19,651 bases of DNA from Planctomycetota bacterium (GTDB taxonomy: Bacteria > Planctomycetota > UBA11346). The stretch spans positions 1-19,651 of the forward strand of contig JBBQSO010000091.1 in the NCBI GenBank assembly GCA_038213805.1, given 5' to 3'. The notes under the pieces are model-generated. The model made no database searches and was not told the origin of the DNA. It was given only the letters and a program-made list of their open reading frames with translations. This document shows, piece after piece, positions 3,453 through 12,968 of the stretch. Position 1 is the first letter of the stretch. Each line of letters starts with the position of its first letter. A program made the position numbers and the translations under genes.

Positions 3453-6170
3453 CTAAAGCGTGAAATGGAACGCGGCCCCCGCGCCGGGCGCGCCCTCCGC
3501 CCAGACCTTGCCGGCGTGGCGGTGGATGATGCGGCCCACGGTGGCCAGGCCGATGCCGGTGCCTGGGAAGTCGCTCGTTGAATGCAGGCGCTGGAAGGCG
3601 CCGAAGAGCTTGCCGACGTAGGCCATGTCGAAGCCGGCGCCGTTGTCGCGCACGGTGAACACCGGACCGTCGGGGCCGTCGCTGGCGCTGAAGGTGATGC
3701 GCGCGTCGGGGCAGCGGGCGGTGAACTTCCAGGCGTTGCCGAGCAGGTTCGCGAGCGCGACGGTCAACAACCGCGCGTCGCCGCTGGCGGTCATGCCCGG
3801 CGCGATGGCAATCGCGACCACGCGCTGCGGCTCGTCACGACGCAGGATCGCGACCACCTCCTCGGCCAGGGCGCTGAGGTCGACCGGCGCACGCACCAGC
3901 TCGGCGCGGGTGATGCGGGCCAGCACCAGCAGATCGTCGATCAGCTCGGCCATACGCCGGGTGGCGCCGCGCACCCGTGCCAGGTAGTCGCGGGCCGTCG
4001 GCGCCCGGTCGGCGCCGTGGTCCTCGTCCAGGGCCTGGGTGAAGCCATCGATGGCGCGCAGCGGCGCGCGCAGATCGTGCGAGACCGAGTAGCTGAAGGC
4101 CTCGAGCTCGCGGTTGGCGACCTCAAGCATGGCCGTGCGCTCGACCACGCGCCGTTCGAGGTCGGCGGTGAGCAGGCCGAGCTCCTCGCCGGTCTGGTGG
4201 CGCTCGATGGCGATGCCGGTGAGGTGCAGCGCCAGCGAGATGATCTGCTGCTCGTCCGCATCGGGCTGGCGCAGCTCGCGCAGGTGGATGCACAGCACGC
4301 CGCCGATCTGCCCGCGCAGCGCCGTGATCGGAGCGCTCCAGCAGCACACCAGGCCGAGCGAGGCGGCGAGCGCGCGCGCACCCAGCCAGGGGGTGTCGGT
4401 GGCGAGCGTCCAGGAGCGCAGCCCGCCCGCGGTGCCGGGTTCCAGCAGCTCCGGCCCCGCCGCCGCCGCCGCGGACTCGAGCGCCGCCAGCCATTCCGCG
4501 GGCAGCGCCGAGGCCGCGGCCGCGGTCAGCCGGCCGCCGCGTGGCGCGCGGCGCAGCAGCGCCACCGCGAGATGCGGGAAGCGCCGCTCGATGAAGCTGC
4601 ACACCAGTTCGAAGGTGTTGGGCAGTGGATGGCCGCGCACGATCATCTCGAGCAGCGCGGACTCCCAGCCCTGTCGCTCCGCCTCGCGCCGGCTGTCGCT
4701 GACGTCGGTGGTCGCGCCGACCCACTCGTGCACCTGCCCGCCGACCAGGATCGGCACGGCGCGCGCCAGGCAGTGCCGCCACTCACCGTCGGCGCGGCGC
4801 ACGCGGTGCTCGACGCGGAAGGGTGCGCGCGTGCGCACCGCCTCCTTCCACACCGCGAGGGTGGCGGCGCGGTCGTCGGGGTGGATGGCCTCCATCCAGC
4901 CACTGCCGGCAGCCTCGGCGCGGCTCTGCCCGGTGAGCGCGATCCACGCCGCCGGGTCGCCACTCGATCGACCGACCGGGTCGGTGGTCCACACCGCCAG
5001 GGCGCTGGCCGAGACCAGCGAACGGAAGCGCAACTCGCTGGCGCGCAGTTCAAGCTCTGCCTGCTTCGCCTCGGTGATGTCCTGCACCACGCCGAGCATG
5101 CGCAGTGGCCGGCCCTCGGCGTCGCGCATCAGCAGGGCGCGGCTCGCCACCCAGCGGGTGGTGGCGGAAGCGGCCCAGCAGGTGCGGAACTCCGCGGCGT
5201 AGCGGCCGTCGCCGGCGATCGCCGCCTGCCGGCTGCGGTCGATGCTGGGCAGATCGTCCGGGTGTGGGACGGTACTGAACACATCGCGCGGGACATCGCG
5301 GTCCGCGTCGCCCAGGCCGAACATGGTCGCGGTGCGGGCTGAAATGCGCCCTTTATCGTTGGCGACATCGACCTCCCACATGCCGAGCTCGGCGATGTCG
5401 ATGGCCAGCGTCAGGCGCGCCTGGCTCTCGCGCAGGGCGGCCTCGGCCTGGCGGCTCGTGGCGATGCGTTCCTCAAGTTCGGCGGTGCGATCCGCGACCT
5501 GCCGCTCGACCGCGCGGAAGTCGCGCTGCGCCTGTTCTTCCTGGCGCGTGCGCAGCGTAAGGAAGCGGTTCATCAGCAGGTGGTTGAGCAGCGCGAGCAG
5601 GAACAGCGCGAGCACCAGACCGATCATCATCGCGAATGTCGTGCGCGTCAGTGCCGCGTCGCGGGCGACGTGCTGCGCGAGGGCGTGCTGCTCGTGCGCC
5701 TTCAGTTCAACGATGCCGCTGCGCAGACGTTCCTCGGCGCCGTCCGCGCCGGACCTGGCCAGCAGGCGCGCCGCCTGCGCATCGTCTGCGCCCAGCAGTG
5801 CGCGCACCTGGTGGTGGTGCGCCGCGAGCGCGTCCATGGCAGCCGCGACGTGCTGCACCGTGGCGGCCTGCTCGGGCACGTCTGCGGTGAGGTCCTCGAG
5901 CGCCACCAGCTGCTGCGTCGCAGTGCCGGCCGATCCGGCCGGTGCGGTCTGGCCGAGCAGGTCGCCGCGCAGCAGGACCTCGTCCGCTGCGAGCGCCGCG
6001 GCCAGGCCGTCGGTGGCCGAGATCACCTGCCAGGCGTGCTCGATCAGGCGAGAGGATTCCTGCGAGGCGAACATCAGCCGGGCTGACATCGCGGCCACTG
6101 CACCCAGGCCGAGCGCGGCCAGCAGCACGCTGAGACGTCTGAAGCGGATCATCGCGGCCTGGGTGAACAT
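3453..6170 (-). CDS. Membrane sensor histidine kinase (TM, CHASE3-like periplasmic region, TM, 2x PAS/PAC, GAF-like, HisKA, HATPase_c)
   Basis: H-box ELEAFSYSVSHDLRAPLR, N-box NLLGNAWKF, G1 DNGAGFD, F-box LFGAFQRLH, G2 GTGIGL. Two PAS repeats with HPDD. Two hydrophobic segments near the N-terminus. Exact start uncertain (6170 or the MIRFRR ATG). Confidence 0.92.
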   Translation of the reverse strand: MFTQAAMIRFRRLSVLLAALGLGAVAAMSARLMFASQESSRLIEHAWQVISATDGLAAALAADEVLLRGDLLGQTAPAGSAGTATQQLVALEDLTADVPEQAATVQHVAAAMDALAAHHHQVRALLGADDAQAARLLARSGADGAEERLRSGIVELKAHEQHALAQHVARDAALTRTTFAMMIGLVLALFLLALLNHLLMNRFLTLRTRQEEQAQRDFRAVERQVADRTAELEERIATSRQAEAALRESQARLTLAIDIAELGMWEVDVANDKGRISARTATMFGLGDADRDVPRDVFSTVPHPDDLPSIDRSRQAAIAGDGRYAAEFRTCWAASATTRWVASRALLMRDAEGRPLRMLGVVQDITEAKQAELELRASELRFRSLVSASALAVWTTDPVGRSSGDPAAWIALTGQSRAEAAGSGWMEAIHPDDRAATLAVWKEAVRTRAPFRVEHRVRRADGEWRHCLARAVPILVGGQVHEWVGATTDVSDSRREAERQGWESALLEMIVRGHPLPNTFELVCSFIERRFPHLAVALLRRAPRGGRLTAAAASALPAEWLAALESAAAAAGPELLEPGTAGGLRSWTLATDTPWLGARALAASLGLVCCWSAPITALRGQIGGVLCIHLRELRQPDADEQQIISLALHLTGIAIERHQTGEELGLLTADLERRVVERTAMLEVANRELEAFSYSVSHDLRAPLRAIDGFTQALDEDHGADRAPTARDYLARVRGATRRMAELIDDLLVLARITRAELVRAPVDLSALAEEVVAILRRDEPQRVVAIAIAPGMTASGDARLLTVALANLLGNAWKFTARCPDARITFSASDGPDGPVFTVRDNGAGFDMAYVGKLFGAFQRLHSTSDFPGTGIGLATVGRIIHRHAGKVWAEGAPGAGAAFHFTL

Positions 6171-6500
6171 ATGCCTCCGCGACCGTCCTAGGGGCGGCGT
6201 GATGGACCCGCCAACCCAGTCTTATGAGTCAGTCTCGGACCGGGCTGGCCCAGACAAGACGTGTGCCGACACCCTTGGCCGCCAAGGGGATGTACCAACG
6301 CGTCACCCCCAATCCCGATTCCTGGCACTGCCAGTGCTTGCGGGTCGAGTCCTCCCCGCTCTAATGCTTCATCCCCTGCAGACGGGTAGATCGCGCGACG
6401 CGGTCCCGGTCGCAGGCCATGGCCCTGGTAAGGGCCGCTCACATGTAGTGCGCTCAGCCGCCTACGCCAATCGAGCCACTTGGCTCAGGATTTGTCTCAC

Positions 6501-9500
6501 ATGACGGACCACCCCGATCTCGCCTCGTTGACCATCAAGGACCTGCGGCAGCTCGCAGGCGAACACCACATCCAGAACCGCAGCAAACTCGGCAAGGAGG
6601 ACCTTGTCCTCGCGCTGCAGAATGCGCTCGCCGGCCTGGGCAGCCGCCTGGCCGCCGCGGCTGCCGCCAGCGGTGGTGGCGAAACCACTGTTGAAAGCGC
6701 CGCTCCGGTCCAGGTCAGCGCGGCTGAGCCGGTCGCCGCCGCGCCCGCGCCCGCGTCCGCCGCCGAACCCGAGGTCCTCACGCTGGGTGGCGATCTCGCC
6801 CCCGCCGCCGAGCCGGAAGTGCTTGATGCCGCGGCCGTCGCCGACCTCGCAAGCCCTGCGCCCGATGCCGGCCCGCGCCCGCTCGGCCCCGATGGCCAGC
6901 CGCTCGGCGACGGTGAACGTCGTGGCCGTCGCCGTCGCCGTCGCCGCGGCCGTGGACGCGGCCGCCGCGATGGTGATGGCTTCGCGCCCGATGGCGCCCC
7001 GGGCGCCCCGGGCGAGCAGGGCCACGATCAGGACGAGGATGGTGAAGGCGAAGGCGAAGACGGCGATGACCAGGGCCAGGGCGAAGCTGCCGCGCCCGTC
7101 GCGCCTGCCGCCGTCGCGCCCGCTGCCGCCAGTCAGCCGATCGCCAAGGCCGGCGATGACCAGCGCCCCGCTGCGCCCCGTCCGCCCGTTGCCGGTCGTG
7201 GCGATGGCCGCGATGGCCAGCGCGAGCCGCGCGGTGACCGTTCGCCCCGCGATGATCGTGAACCTCGTGGCGACCGCGAACCGCGCGGCGATCGCGAACC
7301 CCGTGATCAGCGCGAACCCCGTGGGGATCGCGAGCCTCGTGACCAGCGCGAACCCCGCGGCGACCGCGATCTACGCGGCGACCGCGAGCCTCGTCAGGGC
7401 GACCGCGACCCGCGCGGCCAGAACCAGGGCCCGGAGACCCGTGCGCCCCGCCCGCGCCTTGATGGCCAGGTGCGCTCGGTGCCGAGCGTCCTCGACCGCC
7501 TGTGTGTCTTCACCCGCGGCATCCTCGAACTCTGCGACCCCGCGACCCCGAGCTGGGCGCAGGCACGCCTTTCCGAGCTGCTTGCCGAGGCCGGACTGGT
7601 CGGCATGCCCGCCAACGGCGTGCCCCACCCGGACTTCCACCAGGTGGTGGGCACCGCCCTGGCCAAGGACCTGCCCGCTGGGCACATCGCCGTGATCGAG
7701 GCCCCCGGCTTCGCCCTGCGCGGCGACCGCGGCGACCTCTTCCCGCTGCGCAAGGCCCAGGTGCGTGTCGCTGGCAGCGAGCGTCGCGATCAGGCCCCCG
7801 GCGAGCGTCCCGCCTTCCAGCCGGTCGCCGAGCGCCCGGCCGCTGTCCCGGTGAGCGCCGCCGCTCCTGCCCCCGCTCCTGCCGCCACTCCCGCGGCCGA
7901 GCCGGTCGAGATCGGCCTCGCTGACATCGCCGCGGTGCCCGCGCTGGTCGCGACCACGCCGACTGCAGATGCTCCCGGCCTGCGCCAGGATCCCGACGCG
8001 CCCCGTCAGGATGACGAGCGTGGCGGTCGTCCGCCCCAGGGCGAGCGCAGCCGCCACGGCCGCGACCGCAATGACGGCCGTCGCGATGGCCGCGGCGGTG
8101 AGCGCCGTGATGGCCGCGAACCTCGCGACGGTCGTGAGCCCCGCGATGCCCAGCGCCCGCGTGGTGACGCCCAGGAGCGCGCTCCCGAGCGTGCCCCGGA
8201 AGGCGACGCCCCGGTCCAGCCGGTGGAGCGCAGCGAGGCCCCCGCGCCGCATCCCGAGCAGGGCCGCCCGCCGCACTACCCGCACGCGCCCGAGCCTGCC
8301 GGCGACGCCCCGACCCTGCCGCTCGCGCCGCAGGTCCCGGAAGTGCTCGCCGCCCGCCCCAAAGCGGAAGGCTTCCGCGCCCTTGGCCTGAACGAGCAGA
8401 TCCTCGCGGATCTCGCCGGCATCGGCTATCAGCAGCCCTCGCCGATCCAGTCCGAGGCCATCCCGCACGTGCTCGCCGGCCGCGACGTCCTGGGTCAGGC
8501 CCAGACCGGCACCGGCAAGACCGCGGCCTTCGCCCTGCCCATGCTCCAGCGCCTCTACGAGCTCGAGCCGCGCGAGGGCAAGCCCGCGATGCTGGTGCTG
8601 TGCCCGACGCGCGAACTCGCGCGCCAGGTCGCCGGCGAATTCACGCGCATGGCCGGCGCCAGCGGTGCGCGCGCCGCGGTGATCTACGGCGGCGTGTCGA
8701 TGGACGACCAGGTCCGCGCCCTCGACCGCCACCCGCACGTGGTGATCGGCACCCCCGGCCGCATCATCGACCACATGCGTCGCCACACCCTCGACCTCTC
8801 GCGCCTGGCCATGGCGGTGCTGGACGATGCCGACCAGATGCTCGACATCGGCTTCTGGCCCGACGTCAACTACATCATCGGGCACACCCCGCCCGAGCGG
8901 CAGATGCTGCTGTTCTCAGCCACCTTCCCCGACGAGGTGAAGCAGATGGCCGAGAAGCATATGAAGAACCCCGTGCATGTGCGCATCGCGCCCAAGCAGG
9001 TGACCGTCGAGCAGGTCGACCAGAAATTCATCGCCGTGCCGCGCGAGCGGAAGAACGAGCTGCTGGCGCACTTCATCGAGACCCAGAATCCGCCCCAGCT
9101 GGTGGTGTTCTGCCGCACCAAGCACCAGACCGACCGCGTCGCCGAGGTGCTCAAGCGCAAGAACATGTCTGCCGGCGCCATCCACGGCGACCTGCCCCAG
9201 ACCAAGCGCGAGAAGATGCTCCAGCAGTTCCGCGCCGGCGAGCTGCAGTGCCTGGTCGCGACCAACGTCGCGGCGCGCGGTCTGGACATCCCGACGGTCT
9301 CCCACGTGGTCAACTACGACATCCCCGAGATGCCGGAAGAGTACGTGCATCGCATCGGCCGCACCGCGCGCAACGGCGCACGCGGCGTGGCGCGCACCTT
9401 CATCACCCCCGATGACGGCCAGTTCCTGCTCGAGATCGAGAAGCACATCGGCATGGAGCTCGAGGAGGAGAAGGTCGAGGGCTTCACGCTCGCGCCCGAG

Positions 9501-9599
9501 GTGGAGATCAAGCGTACCATCGCCGACATGCCGGTCGGCACCCCGCGCATGCTCAAGCCGCTGGTCGGCGGCATCCGCCTCGGGCGCCGTCGCCGCTGA
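6501..9599 (+). CDS. DEAD-box family RNA helicase (motif II = DDAD) with ~620 aa N-terminal extension (Rho-N-like, Arg-rich/low-complexity, GrpE-like)
   Basis: Q motif GFRALGL...GYQQPSPIQ, I AQTGTGKT, Ia PTRELARQ, Ib TPGRI, II DDAD, III SAT, IV VVFCRTK, V ATNVAARGLDI, VI HRIGRTAR. ATG 6501 is preceded by AGGA (6487-6490). Confidence 0.92.
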   Translation: MTDHPDLASLTIKDLRQLAGEHHIQNRSKLGKEDLVLALQNALAGLGSRLAAAAAASGGGETTVESAAPVQVSAAEPVAAAPAPASAAEPEVLTLGGDLAPAAEPEVLDAAAVADLASPAPDAGPRPLGPDGQPLGDGERRGRRRRRRRGRGRGRRDGDGFAPDGAPGAPGEQGHDQDEDGEGEGEDGDDQGQGEAAAPVAPAAVAPAAASQPIAKAGDDQRPAAPRPPVAGRGDGRDGQREPRGDRSPRDDREPRGDREPRGDREPRDQREPRGDREPRDQREPRGDRDLRGDREPRQGDRDPRGQNQGPETRAPRPRLDGQVRSVPSVLDRLCVFTRGILELCDPATPSWAQARLSELLAEAGLVGMPANGVPHPDFHQVVGTALAKDLPAGHIAVIEAPGFALRGDRGDLFPLRKAQVRVAGSERRDQAPGERPAFQPVAERPAAVPVSAAAPAPAPAATPAAEPVEIGLADIAAVPALVATTPTADAPGLRQDPDAPRQDDERGGRPPQGERSRHGRDRNDGRRDGRGGERRDGREPRDGREPRDAQRPRGDAQERAPERAPEGDAPVQPVERSEAPAPHPEQGRPPHYPHAPEPAGDAPTLPLAPQVPEVLAARPKAEGFRALGLNEQILADLAGIGYQQPSPIQSEAIPHVLAGRDVLGQAQTGTGKTAAFALPMLQRLYELEPREGKPAMLVLCPTRELARQVAGEFTRMAGASGARAAVIYGGVSMDDQVRALDRHPHVVIGTPGRIIDHMRRHTLDLSRLAMAVLDDADQMLDIGFWPDVNYIIGHTPPERQMLLFSATFPDEVKQMAEKHMKNPVHVRIAPKQVTVEQVDQKFIAVPRERKNELLAHFIETQNPPQLVVFCRTKHQTDRVAEVLKRKNMSAGAIHGDLPQTKREKMLQQFRAGELQCLVATNVAARGLDIPTVSHVVNYDIPEMPEEYVHRIGRTARNGARGVARTFITPDDGQFLLEIEKHIGMELEEEKVEGFTLAPEVEIKRTIADMPVGTPRMLKPLVGGIRLGRRRR
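7221..7415 (+). repeat. Coding 18-bp degenerate tandem repeat (REPRGD/REPRDQ hexapeptides) in the helicase N-terminal extension
   Basis: Translation REPRGDRSPRDDREPRGDREPRGDREPRDQREPRGDREPRDQREPRGDRDLRGDREPRQGDRDPR, with synonymous variation between units. Confidence 0.85.
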
Positions 9600-9606
9600 G
9601 GACGCC

Positions 9607-10497
9607 ATGCCCACCACCATGCGCCACTTCCTGCTGTCCCTGGCGCTGCTCACGGCGCTGCTGGCCAGCGGCTGCCGGGCCGCGAGCCGCGACACCGGCC
9701 GCCCGGCGCCGCCACCCGTCGACCATGCGGTGGTGGCTGGCGAGACCATCAGCCAGGTTGCGGAGGCCTACGGCGTGACGGTGGCCGCCATCGTCAAGGC
9801 CAACGGTCTGCGCAGCCGCAGCCTGCACGCGGGGCAGCGCCTGGTCATCCCTGGCGGACACGCGCCGGAGCCGGTGGCTCCCGCCGCGCCGGAACCCGTG
9901 GTCGCGGCCCCGGTCCAGCCCGCAGCCCCGGCCACTGATTGGTATGTCCCCCGCACCGCCTGGGCCCAGCGCGCGATCATCCTGTCGCGAACCAAGCCGA
10001 TGGGCGGCGTTCCGACGCGCATCACCGTTCATCACAGTGGCGACGTCGGCGACGCGGCGATGGCGCCGCGCCGCTGGCTGAACGAGGTCGACGACCAGCA
10101 CATGCGCGGCGTCGGCAAGGCCGAGCCCTGGGCATGCATCGGCTACCACTTCATCATCAGCGCCGACGGCCAGGTCTTCGAGGGCCGACCGCTGCCCTAC
10201 CAGGGCGCGCACGCTGGCTGGGACGAGGTCAACCGCCTGAACATCGGCATCTGCATGGTCGGCAACTTCGACGTCAGCCAGGTGCCCGGCGCGCAGCGCG
10301 AGGCGCTGCTCGCCGTGCTCGACCGCCTGTGCGAGGACTACCACATCGCGCGCAGCCAGGTCTTCGGCCACAATCACTTCAAGAGCACCGATTGCCCGGG
10401 CCGCCACCTCGTCCCGGTGATTGAGGCGTTTGCGCATCACGCGTCAGCGGCCTCGCCCAACCACGCGCTCGCCACCGTCCTGCCCGCGCAGCCCTGA
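9607..10497 (+). CDS. Lipoprotein with LysM domain and N-acetylmuramoyl-L-alanine amidase (Amidase_2/PGRP-like) domain
   Basis: Lipobox-like LLASGC. LysM HAVVAGETISQVAEAYGVTVAAIVKANGL...AGQRLVIP. Pro/Ala linker. Amidase motifs ITVHHS, IGYHF, GAHA, IGICMVGNF, GHNHF..TDCPG. GAGGA SD overlaps the helicase stop. Confidence 0.9.
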   Translation: MPTTMRHFLLSLALLTALLASGCRAASRDTGRPAPPPVDHAVVAGETISQVAEAYGVTVAAIVKANGLRSRSLHAGQRLVIPGGHAPEPVAPAAPEPVVAAPVQPAAPATDWYVPRTAWAQRAIILSRTKPMGGVPTRITVHHSGDVGDAAMAPRRWLNEVDDQHMRGVGKAEPWACIGYHFIISADGQVFEGRPLPYQGAHAGWDEVNRLNIGICMVGNFDVSQVPGAQREALLAVLDRLCEDYHIARSQVFGHNHFKSTDCPGRHLVPVIEAFAHHASAASPNHALATVLPAQP

Positions 10498-10658: not shown

Positions 10659-10742
10659 GCATGGGTGGCGGAATTGGCAGACGCACTAGCTTGAGGTGCT
10701 AGCGAGGTAACTCTCGTAGGGGTTCGAGTCCCCTCCCGTGCA
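10659..10742 (+). tRNA. tRNA-Leu (anticodon GAG), CCA not encoded
   Basis: Acceptor GCATGGG/CCCGTGC plus discriminator A, D-arm TGGCGGAATTGGCAGACGC, anticodon stem CTAGC-TTGAGGT-GCTAG, long variable arm CGAG-GTAACT-CTCG, T-arm GGGGTTCGAGTCCCC. Followed by CTA. Confidence 0.96.
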
Positions 10743-10751
10743 CTAGATCAG

Positions 10752-12892: not shown

Positions 12893-12968
12893 TGGTACTC
12901 CCGAGGGGAGTCGAACCCCTGTTCACTGGCTGAGAACCAGTTGTCCTGGGCCACTAGACGACGGGAGC
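12893..12968 (-). tRNA. tRNA-Glu (anticodon CTC), CCA encoded
   Basis: Reverse complement GCTCCCGTCGTCTAGTGGCCCAGGACAACTGGTTCTCAGCCAGTGAACAGGGGTTCGACTCCCCTCGGGAGTACCA, 76 nt. Anticodon stem ACTGG-TTCTCAG-CCAGT. Confidence 0.96.

Follow-up and report, generated by a model that had tools for sequence, protein, structure and literature searches.

The contig JBBQSO010000091.1 from assembly GCA_038213805.1 of a Planctomycetota bacterium is 19,651 nucleotides long, and this whole stretch is referred to below as the window. At positions 6501-9599 of its forward strand we identified a gene for a DEAD-box-family RNA helicase with a very long N-terminal extension. The G+C content of the window is ~70%, and as a result spurious long open reading frames (ORFs) occur on every strand; the ORF at 6480..9599 (+) is open throughout and is the true frame of the region. 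Homologues begin with the N-terminus MSD/MTD-x3-L-x2-L-(T/S)-IKDLRQLAGEH, so the ATG at 6501 is the most likely start, giving a protein of 1032 amino acids (aa). From N- to C-terminus this protein comprises a Rho_N domain, a linker with EPEVL motifs, a poly-Arg tract followed by an acidic block, REPRGD repeats, a folded island that is predicted to be GrpE-like, a charged linker, a two-RecA-domain helicase core and a basic tail. The features are given below, with the confidence of AlphaFold2 models expressed as pLDDT (predicted local distance difference test).

6501..9599, + strand: whole gene of the DEAD-box-family helicase, 1032 aa, with an N-terminal extension of ~620 aa; stop codon 9597-9599
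6516..6632, + strand: Rho_N domain (helix-extended-helix; Pfam PF07498), aa 6-44
6669..7463, + strand: first disordered region, aa 57-321; pLDDT <50 at aa 57-106, 114-143 and 145-312
6765..6848, + strand: EPEVL short linear motif in two copies, at aa 89-93 and at aa 104-108; the latter copy is part of the conserved stretch EPEVLDAAAVADL
6915..6968, + strand: poly-Arg/RG tract ERRGRRRRRRRGRGRGRR, aa 139-156; R145-R147 conserved at 90% or more
7014..7085, + strand: acidic D/E/G tract, aa 172-195, directly past the basic tract; net charge -5 and -7 in two 15-aa charge windows
7245..7418, + strand: REPRGD hexapeptide repeats of mixed charge (Arg/Asp/Glu/Pro); 18-bp period, 9.5 copies, 71% matches (Tandem Repeats Finder)
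7464..7781, + strand: predicted GrpE-like domain, aa 322-427, two short helices and a beta-sheet domain (Pfam, Foldseek, AlphaFold2)
7782..8297, + strand: second disordered region, aa 428-599; pLDDT <50 at aa 428-535, 537-552 and 554-599
~8061-8171, + strand: second R/D/G/E tract, aa ~521-557, within the second disordered region
8298..9500, + strand: conserved pre-core segment and two-RecA-domain DEAD-box core; pLDDT >90, column identity 0.66-0.96
8823..8834, + strand: motif II, reading DDAD, with Asp as second residue (D776; codon GAT at 8826-8828)
9501..9596, + strand: short basic C-terminal tail, ending GGIRLGRRRR; column identity 0.85 over the last 12 residues, pLDDT ~50

A first-pass annotation of the DNA had placed the start of the core at about 8370, with ~620 aa before it, and had listed a Rho_N-like first segment, the poly-Arg tract adjoining an acidic one, the REPRGD repeats, a folded-looking island and a second R/D/G tract. 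All of these elements lie where it had put them; the NCBIfam helicase models, for example, align from aa 625 (window position 8373). The island that it had noticed is real, and its GrpE-like identity had been missed. Also borne out is the proposal that the extension is long and mostly disordered. In an AlphaFold2 model of the full-length protein, built with 47 sequences (mean pLDDT 65.8), 445 of the 1032 residues have pLDDT <50, nearly all of them in aa 57-312 and 428-599. Values exceed 90 in Rho_N and in the core (aa 600-1000), and are 71-93 in the island (aa ~322-427).

Distribution and integrity of the gene

A search of 5.8 billion proteins recovered 62 family proteins (P0002-P0063) of 569-1087 aa, at 708-1109 bits. 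Next below the family is a partial sequence at 406 bits, followed from 380 bits downward by ordinary DeaD-type helicases. Those family members that have names in the databases are entered as "DEAD/DEAH box helicase [Planctomycetota]" or as "ATP-dependent RNA helicase DeaD". Scanning a single genome for each species, we identified 17 loci, all in records of metagenome-assembled genomes (MAGs) titled Planctomycetota, planctomycete, Brocadiaceae, Kuenenia or bacterium. The helicase appears to be lineage-specific, and so far has been found only in uncultured Planctomycetota.

Twelve of the 17 loci are complete stop-to-stop frames (801-1180 codons) in which the island lies upstream of Walker A. These frames are continuous over a region that starts before the poly-Arg tract and takes in the core, and ten of them (not L006 and L008) include the full Rho_N. 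The same layout recurs in 46 full-length database homologues, and DEAD and Helicase_C domains were identified in all 47 full-length members (E ≤ 0.01). Thus, the search for relatives of the same architecture that the first-pass annotation had proposed was successful, and its view of a single chain holds. A misassembly or fusion of two genes was rejected on the separated family scores, the 12 complete frames and the 46 full-length homologues. We conclude on sequence grounds that 6501-9599 is one intact gene, a single reading unit rather than two joined.

Sixteen of the 62 family proteins are without a complete extension and were left out of the alignment. Of these, eleven gene calls of 624-675 aa begin at the island (P0021, P0022, P0033-P0035, P0037-P0040, P0043 and P0047), one begins within the island (P0054), one within Rho_N (P0025) and three at other points of the extension (P0009, P0041 and P0061). 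The island-start proteins are probably start mis-calls that hide the extension. Locus L012 (4126-6930) has an open frame of 935 codons that covers Rho_N, and we infer that the 635-aa protein P0037, whose contig has the same length, is the product of a mis-called start in this gene. The extension is easily missed, as public annotations often begin the gene at the island. Shorter island-bearing proteins of 82-446 aa were also found; these end abruptly or in shifted frames.

Helicase core

The last 400 residues are unmistakably those of a DEAD-box helicase. The core is recognized by Pfam as DEAD (aa 647-815, 167.8 bits, cut-off 26) and Helicase_C (aa 851-959, 120.7 bits, cut-off 23.5). It aligns end to end with the NCBIfam models for CshA, DbpA, RhlE, DeaD, SrmB and RhlB, at scores below the curated cut-offs (CshA 456 vs. 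646 bits, DbpA 404 vs. 524, RhlE 365 vs. 743, DeaD 358 vs. 989, RhlB 327 vs. 588). Assignment to a named bacterial equivalog was rejected, as all 11 models (CshA, DbpA, RhlE, RhlE1, RhlE2, DeaD, CsdA, SrmB and three RhlB) fell short of their cut-offs. We did not identify a DbpA or DeaD-dimer C-terminal domain in the protein using Pfam.

The stretches PSPIQ, AQTGTGKT, PTRELA, TPGR, SAT, VVFCRTK, TNVAARGLD and HRIGRTAR are intact; we take these to be the Q motif and motifs I, Ia, Ib, III, IV, V and VI. Motif II deviates, reading DDAD. It is DEAD in 61 of the 62 family proteins (the pattern found no motif in the remaining one) and in 16 of 16 loci with a core, where the codon is GAA or GAG (GAG in L015, the closest relative). 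Its domains and motifs place the protein in the DEAD-box family of superfamily 2 (SF2), though this copy deviates at motif II. We found no literature on a DDAD variant of DEAD-box ATPases.

Rho-type N-terminal domain

The Rho_N match at aa 6-44 is just over the Pfam gathering score (25.7 vs. 24.9 bits, E 1.1e-5). The domain was detected in 42 of the 47 full-length members at E ≤ 0.01 (best E 1.2e-10), and a precomputed PF07498 call exists for 29 of the 62 family proteins. In a PDB search with a profile of 12 N-termini, the top two matches are Rho N-termini (8hsj_A, E 0.031, and 7oqh_A, E 0.058), with E-values that are borderline and alignments that are correctly placed. AlphaFold2 predicts for aa 10-50 a short helix, a helix, a loop and a long helix, with pLDDT 92-96. 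A word-indexed search with aa 1-60 returned four matches, all family members. Together, the sequence matches support the presence of a Rho_N-type domain at the N-terminus of this helicase, as the first-pass annotation had suggested from a residue pattern.

There is no Pfam match at E ≤ 1 to the Rho RNA-binding domain (cold-shock-like, CSD) or to the Rho ATPase. The helicase protein is thus not a Rho, and membership of that family was rejected in spite of the Rho_N domain. In a sub-group that includes L006:8870-12292 and L008:9374-11776 (also P0017, P0036 and P0041) the first half of Rho_N is gone, and the EPELL motif, the poly-Arg tract and the GrpE-like domain are retained.

GrpE-like domain

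The island was aligned in 16 sequences (the window and 15 loci), with a mean column identity of 77% and 41 invariant columns. Its column identity of 0.75-0.86, compared with 0.66-0.96 in the core, indicates that it is conserved as strictly as the core. GrpE is the sole Pfam match at E ≤ 1 in 16 of the 16 sequences (best E 5.6e-6); the island of the window matches profile positions 99-164 of 165, at E 0.0014. A precomputed PF01025 (GrpE) call is present in 3 of the 62 family proteins.

Structure prediction points the same way. An AlphaFold2 model of the island alone reaches an overall pLDDT of 70.4, with values of 84-91 in its beta part. With this model, Foldseek returned 10 PDB matches at E ≤ 0.001, all of them GrpE or human GrpEL1 (9BLS, 9BLT, 3A6M, 1DKG, 4ANI and 9A81), at probability 1.00; the first match other than GrpE has E 0.42. 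Identity to the solved GrpEs is 15-26%. In the full-length model the two helices of the island span H330-344 and H351-364. Alignment to residues 134-183 of E. coli GrpE reveals two signature stretches in altered form, ..P.PDFH.. and GF.LRGDRGDLF.LRKA.V. The invariant, surface-type signature LRGDRGDLF sits in the beta-sheet part, and the island signature was identified in 45 of the 47 full-length members. In a report on the M. tuberculosis DnaK-GrpE structure, GrpE's beta-sheet domain is the major contact with the nucleotide-binding domain (NBD) of DnaK (PMC10803776).

In the ESM Atlas, the best clusters found with the island are unnamed (0.88), and the nearest named one is a GrpE-domain cluster (0.85), which is a lead at most. 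Exhaustive phmmer searching of 1.84 billion representatives gave 19 proteins at E ≤ 0.001, of which 14 are family members or fragments of these; we identified no canonical GrpE among the 19. On this basis, the island is a GrpE relative that has diverged strongly and that, at the sequence level, is confined to this helicase. The other five proteins (P0126, 4110 aa; P0127, 2071 aa; P0128, 635 aa; P0130, 463 aa; P0131, 284 aa) are long or multi-stretch proteins that match the helical part of the island (query aa ~14-59); these matches are probably driven by repeats or composition. A complex prediction for an island homodimer scored 0.21 (mark 0.42) and counts neither for nor against self-association. 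We conclude on profile and model evidence that the folded island is GrpE-like; no other part of the protein is as unusual.

Disordered regions and their motifs

The first linker (282 aa) consists of 16% R, 20% D+E, 15% G, 13% P and 16% A, and the second (189 aa) of 14% R, 18% D+E, 9% G, 19% P and 17% A. Each has a net charge per residue of -0.04; the fraction of charged residues is 0.32-0.36, with 14-16% R. Among 35 parsed members the first linker varies in length from 120 to 443 aa and the second from 109 to 204 aa.

Several short elements are conserved within these regions. EPE(V/L)(L/I)-type motifs were identified in the extension of 39 of the 47 full-length members, and in the alignment of full-length homologues E104, P105 and E106 are conserved at 90% or more. 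An Arg run of at least six occurs in 38 of the 47 (median longest run 9 in the 35 parsed proteins), and an Arg-rich C-terminal end in 44 of the 47. The poly-Arg block has a net charge of +7 in 15 aa. The REPRGD repeats form a well-mixed polyampholyte, with a net charge of 0 per charge window. Asp codons in the extension (6501-8300) are 28 GAT and 30 GAC, compared with 3 GAT and 19 GAC in the core (8301-9596); those GAT codons of the extension are mostly within repeat DNA.

Genomic context

Neighboring genes are of ordinary kinds and encode a GH95 glycosidase, a PAS/GAF histidine kinase, a LysM-amidase, a response regulator, a COQ7-like protein and a Kef-type antiporter. Also present are genes for PrmC, a prepilin peptidase, ArgB and ArgF, and two tRNAs. 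The tRNA genes, tRNA-Leu(GAG) at 10659-10743 (+) and tRNA-Glu(CTC) at 12893-12968 (-), flank the response-regulator gene and two small ORFs. An Rfam scan of the window identified these two tRNAs only, with no hit in the 330-nt leader of the helicase gene. No promoter or terminator was found in a scan of 6100-9800.

Directly downstream of the helicase, at 9607-10497 (+), is a lipoprotein-like gene with LysM and Amidase_2 domains. LysM/amidase-like sequence is also found just downstream of the helicase at L002:3157-3804, L004:12407-12778, L005:11713-12285, L015:2011-2883 and L016:12375-12644. A functional link between the LysM/amidase gene and the helicase is not evident.

Comparison with known systems

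DEAD-box helicases are specialized by their accessory regions. In the germ-granule helicases Ddx4, LAF-1 and Vasa, an N-terminal Arg/Gly-rich intrinsically disordered region (IDR) with blocks of opposite charge precedes the DEAD-box core and drives condensates. Work by Hondele et al. in 2019 reportedly concerned DEAD-box ATPases and condensates. Unlike the planctomycete helicase, Ddx4, LAF-1 and Vasa are eukaryotic and have no Rho_N or GrpE-like module. The disordered, Arg-rich extension flanking the core in condensate-forming DEAD-box helicases is present here too, according to the full-length model.

The closest bacterial parallel is the Type II RhlB of Pseudomonas aeruginosa. RNA-dependent phase separation of this protein requires its 111-aa N-terminal IDR, by which activity is also enhanced (PMC13462270). 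The expectation in the first-pass annotation that extensions of DEAD-box proteins are normally C-terminal is outdated in light of this protein. Both are bacterial DEAD-box helicases with an N-terminal disordered extension rich in Pro and in Arg/Lys. Unlike the 111-aa extension of Type II RhlB, which has no folded module, the one described here is ~620 aa long and holds Rho_N and GrpE-like domains. The core, moreover, is not an RhlB equivalog (327 bits, cut-off 588), and no link to RNase E was found here. Compared with CshA, DbpA, RhlE and DeaD, with which the core aligns end to end, the protein differs in its scores below cut-off, in the absence of a DbpA/DeaD-dimer C-terminal domain, and in an accessory region that is N-terminal and far longer.

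The N-terminal modules have parallels in other proteins. Atypical Rho factors commonly carry, right after Rho_N, an insertion that is Arg-rich, predicted to be disordered and prone to phase separation, an arrangement frequent in high-GC and PVC-group bacteria (PMC11347177). The helicase shares the order of Rho_N followed by an Arg-rich, predicted-disordered region, and differs in having neither a CSD domain nor the hexameric Rho ATPase, its motor being an SF2 DEAD-box core. An atypical Rho factor may have been the source of its Rho_N and Arg-rich segment. In RHON1 of Arabidopsis chloroplasts, a protein reported to support RNase E, the 40-aa Rho-N domain alone binds RNA in gel shifts (PMC3458557). 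Here, too, the domain occurs in an RNA-metabolism protein other than Rho, with an acidic stretch nearby. RHON1 is unlike the helicase in being a plant protein with Rho-N at its C-terminus, no helicase and RNase E as its known partner.

The island resembles GrpE (1DKG, 3A6M, 4ANI, 8GB3 and 9BLS) in its two short helices, its beta-sheet domain and both recognizable signature stretches. It differs in the absence of a long paired helix, in its low identity and sub-cut-off score, and in being set between disordered linkers within a helicase. The C-terminal degradosome scaffold of RNase E is comparable in its long stretch of disorder, its Arg-rich segments that bind RNA and its short conserved motifs; the helicase differs from RNase E in having no RNase E catalytic domain, and no partner-binding microdomain was identified in it. 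By analogy, the helicase would work most like Type II RhlB or the Ddx4-type proteins, with a condensate-prone N-terminal IDR, plus two folded modules.

Proposed function

We suggest that the protein is an RNA helicase whose N-terminal extension gives multivalent RNA binding or condensation, and in which the GrpE-like domain is a docking or self-association module, perhaps for DnaK. We hold this reading somewhat better than even, at a probability of about 0.55. From the architecture, its conservation and the fold assignments we infer the following mechanism. The core would carry out ordinary ATP-dependent RNA clamping and local unwinding, for instance during mRNA turnover or while ribosomes are assembled. 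Several RNA-binding sites on flexible tethers would be provided by Rho_N, by the Arg tracts and by the basic tail, and would raise affinity and valency for RNA; a tendency to form RNA-dependent assemblies or condensates may follow from this, as for Type II RhlB. By the same analogy, the extension may have the role of a scaffold or condensate-former. The GrpE-like domain, held on either side by a long flexible linker, would act as a module for protein-protein contacts. Binding of a protein is the most plausible role for the island, given its place between these linkers and its core-like conservation. Its likeliest partner would be the NBD of DnaK/Hsp70, through the surface that GrpE uses, with self-association as the alternative.

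DnaK co-purifies with the E. coli degradosome. More tentatively, the GrpE fold may have been repurposed here, so that the island recruits DnaK/Hsp70 or another actin-fold ATPase to helicase-RNA assemblies and couples RNA remodeling to chaperoning; we consider this specific version unlikely. Such coupling could serve, for example, ribosome assembly or control of the helicase's own condensates.

A number of observations weigh against the proposed reading. DDAD in the window may mean that ATP hydrolysis is slow or absent, or may be a base error. The closest relative carries the gene in two pieces, each at the end of a contig (L017:8700-10163 and L015:1-1983); the pieces overlap within the island, where both are 96% identical to the window. 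The L017 frame is broken between the Rho_N part and the REPRGD-type repeats, either through assembly error in a repetitive GC-rich stretch or through genuine disruption. Rho_N is missing or truncated in 5 of the 47 members and is thus not indispensable. The GrpE assignment is remote: the island of the window scores 18.8 bits, below the gathering score of 25.8, and GrpE was matched in just 15 of the 47 full-length members at E ≤ 0.01. Confidence is low for the helices in the model of the island alone, and Foldseek gave TMq values of 0.48-0.54, i.e., TM-scores of about 0.5. A PDB sequence-profile search with the island placed GrpE (1dkg_A, E 0.68) behind an unrelated protein (E 0.43), which is not significant.

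Also to be set against it is the absence from the model of the long N-terminal paired helix of GrpE. The sequence upstream of aa 330 is disordered, so this helix is lacking (aa 57-329 are helix-free except for two 3-residue turns). In M. tuberculosis GrpE the long helix is essential, and its mutations nearly abolish nucleotide exchange and refolding (PMC10803776). The sub-threshold score and the missing paired helix led us to reject membership in GrpE proper. Because the long helix is absent, the island is probably a docking module, not a full nucleotide-exchange factor.

The genomic surroundings are of little help to the reading. Gene order is conserved with the closest MAG only, and the neighbors therefore give no functional hint. 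No dnaK or grpE gene is present within the window. The first-pass annotation had proposed a degradosome-like or condensate scaffold from composition and analogy, and this proposal was not strengthened: we found no RNase link, as there is no RNase domain in the protein and no RNase gene among 12 neighboring ORFs in a Pfam scan.

Among the alternatives, the island may be a dimerization module and the rest of the extension a passive spacer, making the protein a dimeric helicase like CshA or Hera with neither chaperone link nor scaffold role. GrpE is obligately dimeric, with its short helices packed into a four-helix bundle (PMC10803776), and the island retains two short helices. Repeat number and linker lengths vary widely, as expected of a spacer. 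We nevertheless regard this alternative as doubtful, as the supposed spacer contains a conserved poly-Arg block, EPEVL motif and basic tail, the invariant LRGDRGDLF is in the beta-sheet part and not in the helices, and the long coiled helices, which make a large share of the GrpE dimer contact, are absent.

Dbp5 and eIF4A are acted on in trans by Gle1/Nup159 and eIF4G. In a similar way, the island could act in cis on the RecA-like domains of its own helicase, regulating domain closure or the release of nucleotide from within the chain. Such a role would fit an island that is as strictly conserved as the core, always accompanies this core and is found nowhere else. It seems improbable, as the known target of GrpE is the actin-fold NBD of Hsp70 and not a RecA fold (PMC10803776), and ~170 disordered residues separate the island from the core.

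A change from Glu to Asp at the catalytic Glu of Walker B, as in RecA E96D, makes hydrolysis much slower and leaves nucleotide binding intact. By analogy, the same change in a DEAD-box protein would favor a long-lived RNA clamp. This copy might thus be a hydrolysis-impaired pseudo-helicase that clamps RNA for long periods in an ATP-dependent manner, or the Asp might be a single-base error; both are in line with the near-universal DEAD of the family and with the codons, which are GAT in the window, GAG in its closest relative, and either GAG or GAA in every locus with a core. We give this pair of explanations little credence. The remaining helicase motifs are intact and no paper on DDAD was found; the difference is one base in one assembly, and at the level of the assembly a true variant is indistinguishable from an error.

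Very improbable is that the long ORF is an artefact, with a Rho_N/IDR protein misjoined to a helicase or a start extended beyond a true one at the island or core, for although 16 family proteins have no complete extension, the assembly of the closest relative is broken in frame upstream of the repeats and island-bearing fragments exist, 12 complete continuous frames come from different MAGs, 46 database proteins share the layout, L012 is open through Rho_N where P0037 begins at the island, and the fragments stop abruptly or shift frame.

Significance

In searches of the main texts of freely accessible articles, we found no description of a Rho_N or GrpE-like domain on a DEAD-box helicase. The first-pass annotation had not recognized the architecture as one already described, and this stands as far as that literature goes; as sequences, the proteins were already in the databases under generic helicase names. 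Two modules apparently unreported on a helicase, a Rho-type nucleic-acid-binding domain and a GrpE-like domain, are thus combined in one protein amid ~450 residues of charged disorder.

The family provides an extreme natural case in which to study how N-terminal disorder tunes the condensation of bacterial helicases, a mechanism that has only just been shown for Pseudomonas RhlB. The GrpE-like module would surprise a specialist, and by analogy with GrpE it suggests an Hsp70-helicase link in an uncultured lineage. If the domain does bind DnaK, it would be a rare use of the GrpE fold outside a co-chaperone, and would provide a direct physical link between the Hsp70 system and a bacterial RNA helicase.

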